From IMG/VR virus record IMGVR_UViG_2695420747_000011, positions 1-14,262 of that record: a stretch of 14,262 nt of DNA. One strand, given 5' to 3'. Positions 9,449 through 9,787 of this stretch are shown piece after piece. Position 1 is the stretch's first letter. The number at the start of each line of letters is the position of its first letter. A program made the translations under genes and the position numbers. Below the pieces are notes generated by a model. It saw nothing but the letters and a program-made list of their open reading frames with translations. It was not told the DNA's origin and searched no databases. Origin of the DNA: a virus. Lineage: Duplodnaviria > Heunggongvirae > Uroviricota > Caudoviricetes.

Positions 9449-9787
9449 TTTATCCTCCATTGAGGTTACTGGTTGAGAATGGAGACCTCTCGTGACAGCG
9501 TGTGGTCGTGCGCCGGACACGGATAAGAATCCGGCACTGACAGTTTACTGAAAGGATATTTCCCTGAAAAGTCAGACCATAACGCGAAAGCGCACGGCGA
9601 GGTAGCTGGTTCATAGATAGCCTGTCGTTAAATTTTCGTCGACCGTGCGCTTCCGGTTGTGGCAATCCGCGAAATGGCGCGGCGGTAAGTATGGCGGGGT
9701 TATTCCTTCCCCCGTTGAGGACACCGGGTTGTCAGGTTGACCATACGCTTAAGTGACAACCCCGCTGCAACGCCCTCTGTTATCAAT

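Follow-up and report, generated by a model that had tools for sequence, protein, structure and literature searches.

The window, by which we mean the whole stretch of 14,262 nucleotides (nt) analysed here, belongs to a lambdoid prophage of Escherichia coli that adjoins ompW, and is 100% identical to strain FORC_069. This report concerns positions 9449-9787, immediately upstream of the gene for the small RNA (sRNA) DicF, and in particular a structured RNA domain of about 116 nt within them (9656-9771, plus strand) that we have designated motif C. The genes around this stretch are a repressor gene, a ydfA-like gene (DUF1391), a 116-amino-acid (aa) open reading frame (ORF) and a convergent 64-aa gene on the minus strand (9254-9448); the stretch itself and DicF (9789-9840) follow, and after these come dicB, ydfD, a gene for an 824-aa exonuclease, xis and int. 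A Pfam search of the window ORFs matched only DUF1391, DicB and DUF1482, with no family found for the 64-aa protein, and in the identical RefSeq record of FORC_069 no annotation stands between the 64-aa gene and DicF.

An earlier account made without database searches (hereafter the sequence-only reading) had described the stretch as GC-rich, free of ORFs and rich in hairpins. Its GC content is 52.8%, compared with 47.9% for the whole window and 38.6% and 42.1% for the two flanks; the description holds in a relative sense only, because the flanks are AT-rich. The absence of genes was borne out. A minus-strand ORF over the stretch is 111 aa long in K-12 but 71 aa here, the frame being shifted by a 1-nt insertion or deletion in hairpin H2 of motif C, and a plus-strand ORF beginning with GTG (9645-9740) is interrupted by a TAA stop in copies of the type found in phage cdtI; judged from such close relatives, 9449-9787 has no conserved ORF and is non-coding. 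The four inverted repeats that had been picked out by eye all exist (Table 1), although 19-21 nt to the right of the positions first assigned to them. A promoter for the reverse gene, for which the stretch had seemed to leave room, was not found: a sigma-70 consensus scan of 9449-9787, a crude one that also overlooks the DicF terminator with its long loop, gave no such promoter, and only a Shine-Dalgarno (SD) sequence and an anti-SD hairpin are present there.

The suggestion that the stretch might be an insertion relative to the Qin prophage of K-12 proved to be wrong. Window 9507-9787 aligns end to end with the ydfC-dicF interval of Qin (97.2% identity over 281 nt), the alignment continuing without a break into DicF, and the sole segment without homology to Qin is 9449-9506, where a different minus-strand gene stands in place of ydfC. 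A megablast search of 5,426 complete E. coli genomes located the stretch in 4,318 of them, at up to eight places per genome, none of which is annotated. Window 9507-9787 is the ordinary transcribed leader of DicF, in agreement with the earlier proposal that part of it belongs to the dicBF precursor: the ydfC-dicF interval is transcribed from the dicB promoter as a long untranslated region (UTR), or 3′ UTR of ydfC, the 5′ end of DicF is made by RNase E, and its 3′ ends arise at the terminator (53-nt species) or through RNase III (72-nt species) (PMC5069750, PMC9438474). In the accessible literature the ~280 nt upstream of DicF are treated as plain UTR, with no structure, motif or role assigned (PMC5069750, PMC9438474), and RefSeq carries no feature for this UTR in the dicBF operon of K-12 Qin (ydfABC-dicF-dicB-ydfD), whereas we find part of the same sequence to be a structured motif. 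The Rfam model of DicF (RF00039, 52 nt) matches 9789-9840 only, and the stretch lies beside DicF and outside the DicF family. Neither this model nor any other in Rfam 15 found a match in 9449-9787, even at E ≤ 10.

Folding energy gave a divided picture of the stretch. The plus strand folds with z = −1.87 (3 of 100 shuffles were as good) and the minus strand with z = −3.24. Divided into parts, the 5′ module of the leader (9507-9665) reaches z = −3.36; the 3′ part containing motif C (9652-9778) reaches z = −0.45, no better than shuffles. By the energy criterion alone the stretch would be unremarkable, and we regard folding energy by itself as weak evidence. It is covariation, not energy, that raises the structure above chance. 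The leader is thus the ordinary one, as the sequence-only reading had allowed, but the extra conserved structure whose absence would have closed the matter is present; the additional structured RNA for which that reading saw room is a domain at 9656-9771 with strong covariation, found independently of DicF in other phages.

Motif C is a discrete, conserved structured RNA domain, organized as a four-way junction (P1, H1, P2a/H2, H3) with a pseudoknot (Table 1). The minimum free energy (MFE) fold of the isolated domain gives helices P1, H1, P2a, H2 and H3. The junction helices are separated by 3, 1, 0 and 1 nt, and the topology is cloverleaf-like.

Table 1. Features of the DicF leader and its surroundings, with helix variants at related loci (numbered L) and in phages
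Feature	Position	Strand	Sequence or pairing	Remarks and variants
5′ UTR of 64-aa gene	9449-9506	−	SD GGAGGAU	SD plus anti-SD hairpin
Anti-SD hairpin	9455-61 with 9478-84		CUCCAUU with AAUGGAG	plus-strand coordinates
Module B (5′ leader module)	9507-9655	+		fold z = −3.36
Module B hairpin	9512-17 with 9530-35		GCCGGA with UCCGGC	
Module B helix	9537-41 with 9571-75		CUGAC with GUCAG	encloses boxB-like CCCUGAAAAGUCAG, 9562-75
Module B long irregular helix	9577-9597 with 9643-9662			encloses variable apical hairpin
Motif C	9656-9771	+		~116 nt
Helix P1 (closing)	9656-63 with 9764-71	+	GUUGUGGC/GCUGCAAC	cdtI GUUGUGGU/ACCACAAC; L334 GCAGUAGG/CCUACUGC
Helix H1	9667-71 with 9678-82	+		
Helix P2a	9684-86 with 9723-25	+	GGU with ACC	GGC/GCC, U-A to C-G in 5 sequences
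Pseudoknot	9689-94 with 9741-46 (in H3 loop)	+	GUAUGG with CCAUAC	GCAUGG/CCAUGC, U-A to C-G in 8 sequences; U.G intermediates in 3
Helix H2 (variable)	9695-99 with 9710-14	+	CGGGG/CCCCG	L161 CAGGUG/CACCUG; phage P1 CUGGG/CCCAG
Helix H3	9726-34 with 9754-62	+	GGGUUGUCA/UGACAACCC	phage P1 GUUGCCA/UGGCAAC; L309 GGAUCACCA/UGGUGAUCC; L334 GUAACGCG/CGCGUUAC
Linker	9772-9787	+		single-stranded, U-rich, ends at DicF 5′ end; RNase E site of the literature falls here (PMC5069750, PMC9438474)
DicF and intrinsic terminator	9788-9845	+		Rfam RF00039 at 9789-9840, 76.7 bits
DicF terminator stem	9803-13 with 9827-39		GGCGGUAUCAG with CUGCUCUGCCGCC	U-run 9841-45; ΔG −15.1 kcal/mol
Inverted repeat	9513-17 with 9530-34		CCGGA with TCCGG	
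Inverted repeat	9590-97 with 9643-50		GCGCACGG with CCGTGCGC	
Inverted repeat	9667-71 with 9678-82		CCGCG with CGCGG	
Inverted repeat	9695-99 with 9710-14		CGGGG with CCCCG	

Copies of the motif were gathered from IMG/VR, metagenomes and annotated collections, giving 103 distinct sequences in 29 clusters at 95.5% identity. Two alignments were examined: A2, with 28 representatives aligned by MAFFT, and A3, with 94 distinct rows fitted to the model. In A2, 91.8% of the cells are paired, as opposed to 33-54% in controls with the structure slid along the alignment, and 16 pairs have changed on both sides (6.9 ± 1.7 in shuffles); in A3 the corresponding values are 95.4% (33-58%) and 21 pairs (8.1 ± 1.8). 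For neither alignment did any of 500 shuffles reach the observed values. Compensatory changes are found in all six helices, some of which have been wholly rewritten in divergent members. The folded molecule is the plus-strand RNA, that is, the strand of the dicB operon, because its frequent G.U pairs would be A.C on the other strand. A covariance model of the motif (R1) scores 158.9 bits at the window and 84-158 bits at 96 other loci.

Some care is needed in reading these alignments. The gathering patterns fixed parts of the core, and since the loci were gathered with those patterns the conservation of the segments concerned is partly by construction, which weakens the case to that extent; A3 was fitted to the model, and L334 and the closing helices of the phage P1 type are poorly aligned. 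Two further structural proposals were discarded: a pseudoknot of the H2 loop (UCCU) with a downstream GAGGA, which is not kept in several classes, and the MFE folds of the whole phage P1 and cdtI leaders, which are at odds with the covariation model and were not used. Taken together, the pairing data leave us confident that motif C is a genuine structured RNA.

Motif C is widespread. Of 5,426 complete E. coli genomes, 4,315 (about 80%) carry it, at 8,968 places in all and with up to eight copies per genome, and nowhere is it annotated; canonical DicF occurs at 6,401 places in 3,969 genomes, and the full-length junction of motif and DicF in 4,000 genomes. By these counts DicF is essentially always preceded by motif C, but motif C is not always followed by canonical DicF. 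Outside E. coli, a locus in E. albertii (L025) was the only true match among the matches listed in a 15-base pattern scan of genome contigs, the rest being almost all chance.

In phage records the leader splits into pieces with separate distributions, the flanks recombining around an intact core. Window 9656-9779 is found at ~89% identity in phages cdtI, 2H10 and Ayreon and in Stx2c phages, all of which lack DicF. Here the order is cI, the cI terminator, the promoter PL, ~275 nt, the motif, a terminator, and the early-left genes as far as xis, among which there is no N gene. The promoter is near consensus (TTGACA-16-CATAAT) and was also annotated by the authors of the Ayreon record; a diverged metagenomic phage keeps the same order. 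A sensitive search of phage records recovered 9667-9764 at 76-82% identity in phages P1 and P7, where the motif lies ~35 nt downstream of the C1-controlled Pban promoter (Op72) and is followed by a terminator, tRNAs and ban. The phage P1 record (AF234172) carries a misc_feature named "dicF-like region" (68791-68892) that overlaps the phage P1 copy of the motif (68739-68833) and the terminator. It denotes sequence similarity only, starts within the motif and assigns neither an RNA structure nor a role, and the phage P1 copy has no DicF seed. In the functional phages Tritos and mEp460_ev081 the order is cI-ydfABC-leader-DicF-dicB-ydfD-exo-xis-int, with no N annotated.

What follows the motif is, with few exceptions, an intrinsic terminator. 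Of 87 distinct downstream contexts, 84 show a hairpin with a U-run (ΔG ≤ −9 kcal/mol) whose start lies 6-49 nt beyond the motif. The terminator of L169 is weaker (ΔG −7.7); L309 and L334, the members that have diverged most, are the two real exceptions. The stems found in this position are of at least nine different kinds, that of DicF being one of them, and motif C together with the following intrinsic terminator, whichever one it may be, forms a mobile unit. The spacers between motif and terminator are single-stranded, 11-49 nt in length and variable in sequence, in the manner of an sRNA seed, and the terminator hairpins of each class have UUU or CUU on the 5′ flank and a tail of five to six U residues. 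DicF-like cassettes were noted after the motif at L130, L244, L224, L155, L161, L150, L004 and L003; from their sequences, these may be sRNAs with different targets.

Across the terminator classes we found no conserved pairing between the motif, including the 3′ strand of helix P1, and the varying terminators. A candidate antiterminator hairpin at the window, formed by CGCC (9774-77) and UGUUAUCA (9781-88) with UGGUGACG (9795-9802) and GGCG (9806-09), at about −15 kcal/mol, was not adopted because other terminator classes do not keep the pairing 9774-88/9795-9809. Within the operons, extra terminators are not enriched over shuffles.

The position of motif C, in the order repressor-controlled promoter, motif, terminator and early genes, fits a role in the control of transcript elongation. 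We tentatively propose, at something short of even chances, that it acts in cis on the transcribing complex and sets the balance between termination and read-through. The folded domain would determine the share of RNA polymerase that stops at the terminator 6-49 nt downstream. Termination would yield DicF or a DicF-like short RNA, and read-through would give expression of the early genes, namely dicB-ydfD-exo-xis-int in the window, orf39-yfdQ-yfdR...xis in phages of the cdtI type and tRNAs...ban in phage P1. Motif C would then be an N-independent antitermination or attenuation device of early operons, which might bind RNA polymerase or a host elongation factor directly, as does the put RNA of phage HK022, or, less likely, sense a trans-acting factor in the manner of a riboswitch. 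The lack of a conserved alternative pairing between motif and terminator favours the polymerase-acting, put-like mode over a classical riboswitch.

Read-through is needed in operons that have no N or nut, such as those of the functional phages Tritos and mEp460_ev081 and of phage cdtI. No N gene is annotated in FORC_069, Tritos, mEp460_ev081, cdtI or Ayreon, a statement about annotation, as no homology search for a divergent N was run. In the window, no boxA (CGCUCUUA or GCUCUUUA) was found within one mismatch between the repressor gene and dicB (8467-10015). The put RNA of HK022 suppresses termination in cis without the help of phage proteins and binds the zinc-binding domain of the β′ subunit of RNA polymerase. 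The two put sites, putL and putR, are cis-acting processive antiterminators and, like motif C, are RNAs in the early operons of an N-less lambdoid phage, downstream of repressor-controlled promoters and upstream of terminators (PMC9378689). The two elements are otherwise different, put being ~70 nt long with two stems in a V shape and motif C ~116 nt with a four-way junction and a pseudoknot; model R1 gave no match at E ≤ 1 in HK022 22000-33500, which covers the immunity region and both put sites. Phage λ nut occupies the same position in the PL operon, and CCCUGAAAAGUCAG in module B resembles the λ boxB, GCCCUGAAAAAGGGC. However, λ nut consists of boxA and boxB and acts with N, whereas only the boxB-like hairpin is seen here, without boxA or an annotated N, and the conserved part is a large folded domain instead of a 15-nt hairpin.

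Like riboswitches, motif C has an aptamer-like fold, here with covariation support, and it shares with terminator-coupled aptamers of the SAM-I type its size, a multi-helix junction, a pseudoknot, conserved junction nucleotides, a variable peripheral helix and a terminator close downstream. The likeness is architectural only: there is no match to an Rfam family and no conserved alternative pairing between helix P1 and the terminator. Rfam searches of seven loci related to the window likewise returned nothing on the motif at E ≤ 0.1. Strings of the motif sequence gave no match in the full texts of the literature, although Faubladier 1990, Faubladier & Bouche 1994 or Lobocka 2004 may contain a description. 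Motif C is, in our opinion, a new RNA family of a known general kind, the cis-regulatory leader RNA coupled to a terminator.

Several observations count against control of elongation. We infer the mechanism wholly from position. The distance between promoter and motif is ~1 kb in Qin-type operons, with three ORFs in between, and only one copy of the motif was found per phage genome, whereas HK022 has put sites in both of its early operons. Natural variants without the 5′ strand of helix P1 persist (L137, L185, L349), and L309 and L334 have no adjacent terminator. The isolated motif, moreover, folds no better than shuffles (z = −0.45). At DicF, antitermination could be only partial, because the terminator works in vivo, as the reported 53-nt species shows (PMC5069750, PMC9438474). 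Finally, in every class the cassette after the motif resembles an Hfq-type sRNA module, with a U-rich tract, a hairpin and a U-tail, and this fits a role in RNA processing equally well.

In that alternative, the main rival, which we consider possible though on the whole unlikely, the tRNA-like four-way junction is a handle that is recognised by host RNases or blocks them; RNase E cuts the U-rich linker 3′ of the motif and releases an Hfq-binding sRNA with a defined 5′ end, which is DicF here and a differently seeded DicF-like RNA elsewhere. The 5′ end of DicF is made by RNase E (PMC5069750, PMC9438474), 17 nt after the motif; each class has its variable seed of 11-49 nt, hairpin preceded by UUU or CUU, and U5-6; in essentially all genomes that contain canonical DicF, one copy of it or more stands immediately after the motif; and the cloverleaf-like topology is accompanied by tRNA-like pieces in related leaders (see below). 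Analogues would be the sRNAs from tRNA 3′ external transcribed spacers (3′-ETS), the processing of MicL guided by stem-loops, and the C4 and CI RNAs of phages P1 and P4 matured by RNase P. The MicL and 3′-ETS elements share with the leader a structured domain, a U-rich RNase E site, and a seed with a terminator; they are, however, simple stem-loops or genuine tRNAs, whereas motif C is pseudoknotted and is conserved also in the absence of canonical DicF. A pseudoknotted core whose junction and loop nucleotides are near-invariant from lambdoid phages to phage P1 is more than the usual RNase E ruler. Furthermore, only the four-way topology recalls a tRNA: ARAGORN called no tRNA or tmRNA gene in the window and the Rfam tRNA model gave no match at E ≤ 10. 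A handle would also not account for L309 and L334, which carry the motif without an sRNA or terminator cassette, or for the placement of the motif before long early operons of N-less phages. Elongation control and processing could both be served by the same domain.

An improbable alternative is an RNA that acts in trans: the motif, either by itself or joined to the terminator hairpin, would persist as a stable RNA made early by the phage and would bind and titrate a host protein or a defence protein, serving as sponge, decoy or anti-defence RNA, and the terminator would simply set its 3′ end. In phage P1 the unit is the first to be transcribed after derepression and would with its terminator form a primary transcript of ~190 nt; the conserved loops and junctions suggest a specific ligand, and there are up to eight copies per genome. 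In Qin-type operons, on the other hand, the motif lies within a polycistronic RNA, the accessible literature reports no RNA of such a size that accumulates, and no partner is known. That the stretch is nothing but DicF precursor, its incidental hairpins seemingly conserved through the recent spread of prophage modules, would agree with the 97% identity to K-12, with the unexceptional folding energy of the motif (z = −0.45) and with the silence of the literature as to function. It is contradicted by the compensatory changes in all six helices, by the retention of 76-82% identity in phages P1 and P7, in another operon and without DicF, and by the recombination of flanks around an intact core, and we think it very improbable. 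We give hardly any credence to a decayed or unrecognised coding gene, or to a site acting as DNA (an operator or recombination site). The 111-aa ORF of K-12 extends across the stretch and some phage records annotate hypothetical proteins over it; yet 1-nt indels and stop codons break the frames between close relatives, the substitutions preserve base pairing and not codons, and the asymmetry of wobble pairs points to a single-stranded RNA of the plus strand.

Returning to the control of elongation, the passage of N-less lambdoid phages through their early terminators is an unsettled question, for which specialists have already invoked a put-like RNA, the authors guessing at "put-like" mechanisms (PMC12315714). 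Motif C offers a specific candidate, its coordinates exactly defined and its fold supported by covariation, in the tractable systems K-12 (Qin), the inducible phages Tritos, Ayreon, cdtI and mEp460_ev081, and phage P1. To our knowledge, HK022 put is the only RNA-only solution to these terminators. The wider claim, that motif C represents a class of elongation-reprogramming RNA (a put-like antiterminator with an unrelated fold, or a leader sensing a ligand or factor) that gates the early operons of N-less lambdoid phages and of phage P1 and sets the yield of DicF-type sRNAs, is one we regard as doubtful; if true, such an RNA escaped notice in E. coli K-12 for 35 years, adjacent to an sRNA that was among the first to be described. 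That motif C is more widespread in E. coli than canonical DicF was noted above. DicF affects cell division, metabolism and the virulence of enterohaemorrhagic E. coli, and the presence of motif C alters the view of its biogenesis and dosage. With the motif, ~80% of complete E. coli genomes gain an unannotated RNA family, frequently with more than one copy each, and were it only a processing handle it would still be a new, defined element of sRNA maturation.

The 5′ part of the leader has features of its own. Module B occurs apart from motif C in phiSTEC1589-Stx1c and PhiR5_2 (9507-9661). At other loci the position of the boxB-like CCCUGAAAAGUCAG is taken by GCCUGACGUGGUUAAAAGCAGGC, directly 3′ of operator-like repeats, TTGTTGGGGA. 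As read from the sequences, other leader classes retain the long irregular helix but build it from different sequences. The 3′ strand of the helix continues into a segment, β (GUUGUGG, 9656-62), that is also the 5′ strand of helix P1 and is complementary both to α (CCAUAAC, 9577-83) and to γ (GCUGCAAC, 9764-71). Both complementarities are, again as read from the sequences, kept with other sequences in leaders of the cdtI, L161, L298 and L309 types. The MFE fold of the whole stretch pairs α with β and that of the isolated motif pairs β with γ; these pairings may constitute a switch, or may be no more than a pair of stacked helices. Recurrent deletions at L137, L185 and L349 lie between the direct repeats AACGCGAAA and CCGCGAAA (window 9581-9589 and 9667-9674), which appear to mediate loss of the long helix and of the 5′ strand of helix P1 (β), leaving a truncated motif.

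At the extreme 5′ end, the UTR at 9449-9506 also occurs in other prophages, where at the same junction it stands in front of small minus-strand genes of other kinds; it resembles a common cassette for the expression of cargo genes that face the early-left operon. Directly 3′ of the DUF1391 gene lies the 116-aa ORF (8915-9265, plus strand), which shares 12 nt with the 3′ end of the convergent 64-aa gene. Only part of this ORF is marked in RefSeq, as a pseudogene, and it has no Pfam family match.

Some related leaders contain tRNA-like segments. In leaders of the cdtI type (phage cdtI itself, L004 2676-2765; L161, L177, L269, L287, L298 and L006) a further unannotated domain follows the terminator, just upstream of the ribosome-binding site of the first gene. 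It is closed by a covarying helix, CAGA[G/U/A]AAGAGCA with UGCUCUU[C/A/U]UCUG, and the sequence of its inner stem-loop, GGGCUCAUAACCC, is exactly that of the initiator tRNA-fMet anticodon arm. A leader domain upstream of the motif in L309 (1867-1991, minus strand) matches the Rfam tRNA family with 39.6 bits, and the leader domains of L177, L269 and L287 contain a T-arm-like GGUUCGAUUCC; ARAGORN called no tRNA in the L309, L177, L269 and L287 leaders.

Downstream of DicF, the dicF-dicB spacer (9852-9995, plus strand) is enclosed by a 17-bp long-range helix (9852-68 with 9979-95), which is probably an RNase III site because the reported 72-nt DicF 3′ end (~9859) falls inside it. The spacer gives a sub-threshold match to Rfam STnc100 (38.4 bits; gathering score 47), and a similar sub-threshold STnc100-like element lies upstream of tciA in phage P1. 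An 83-nt segment with 98.8% identity to E. coli dicF and its terminator is present in the 254-kb record of Aeromonas phage AP1 (MT713136.1, 249906-249988), without the upstream motif; transfer, contamination or misassembly may explain it. Elsewhere in the window, a sok antisense RNA (1855-2030, minus strand; Rfam, 117 bits) adjoins hokD, the pair being an ordinary type I toxin-antitoxin module of the prophage.

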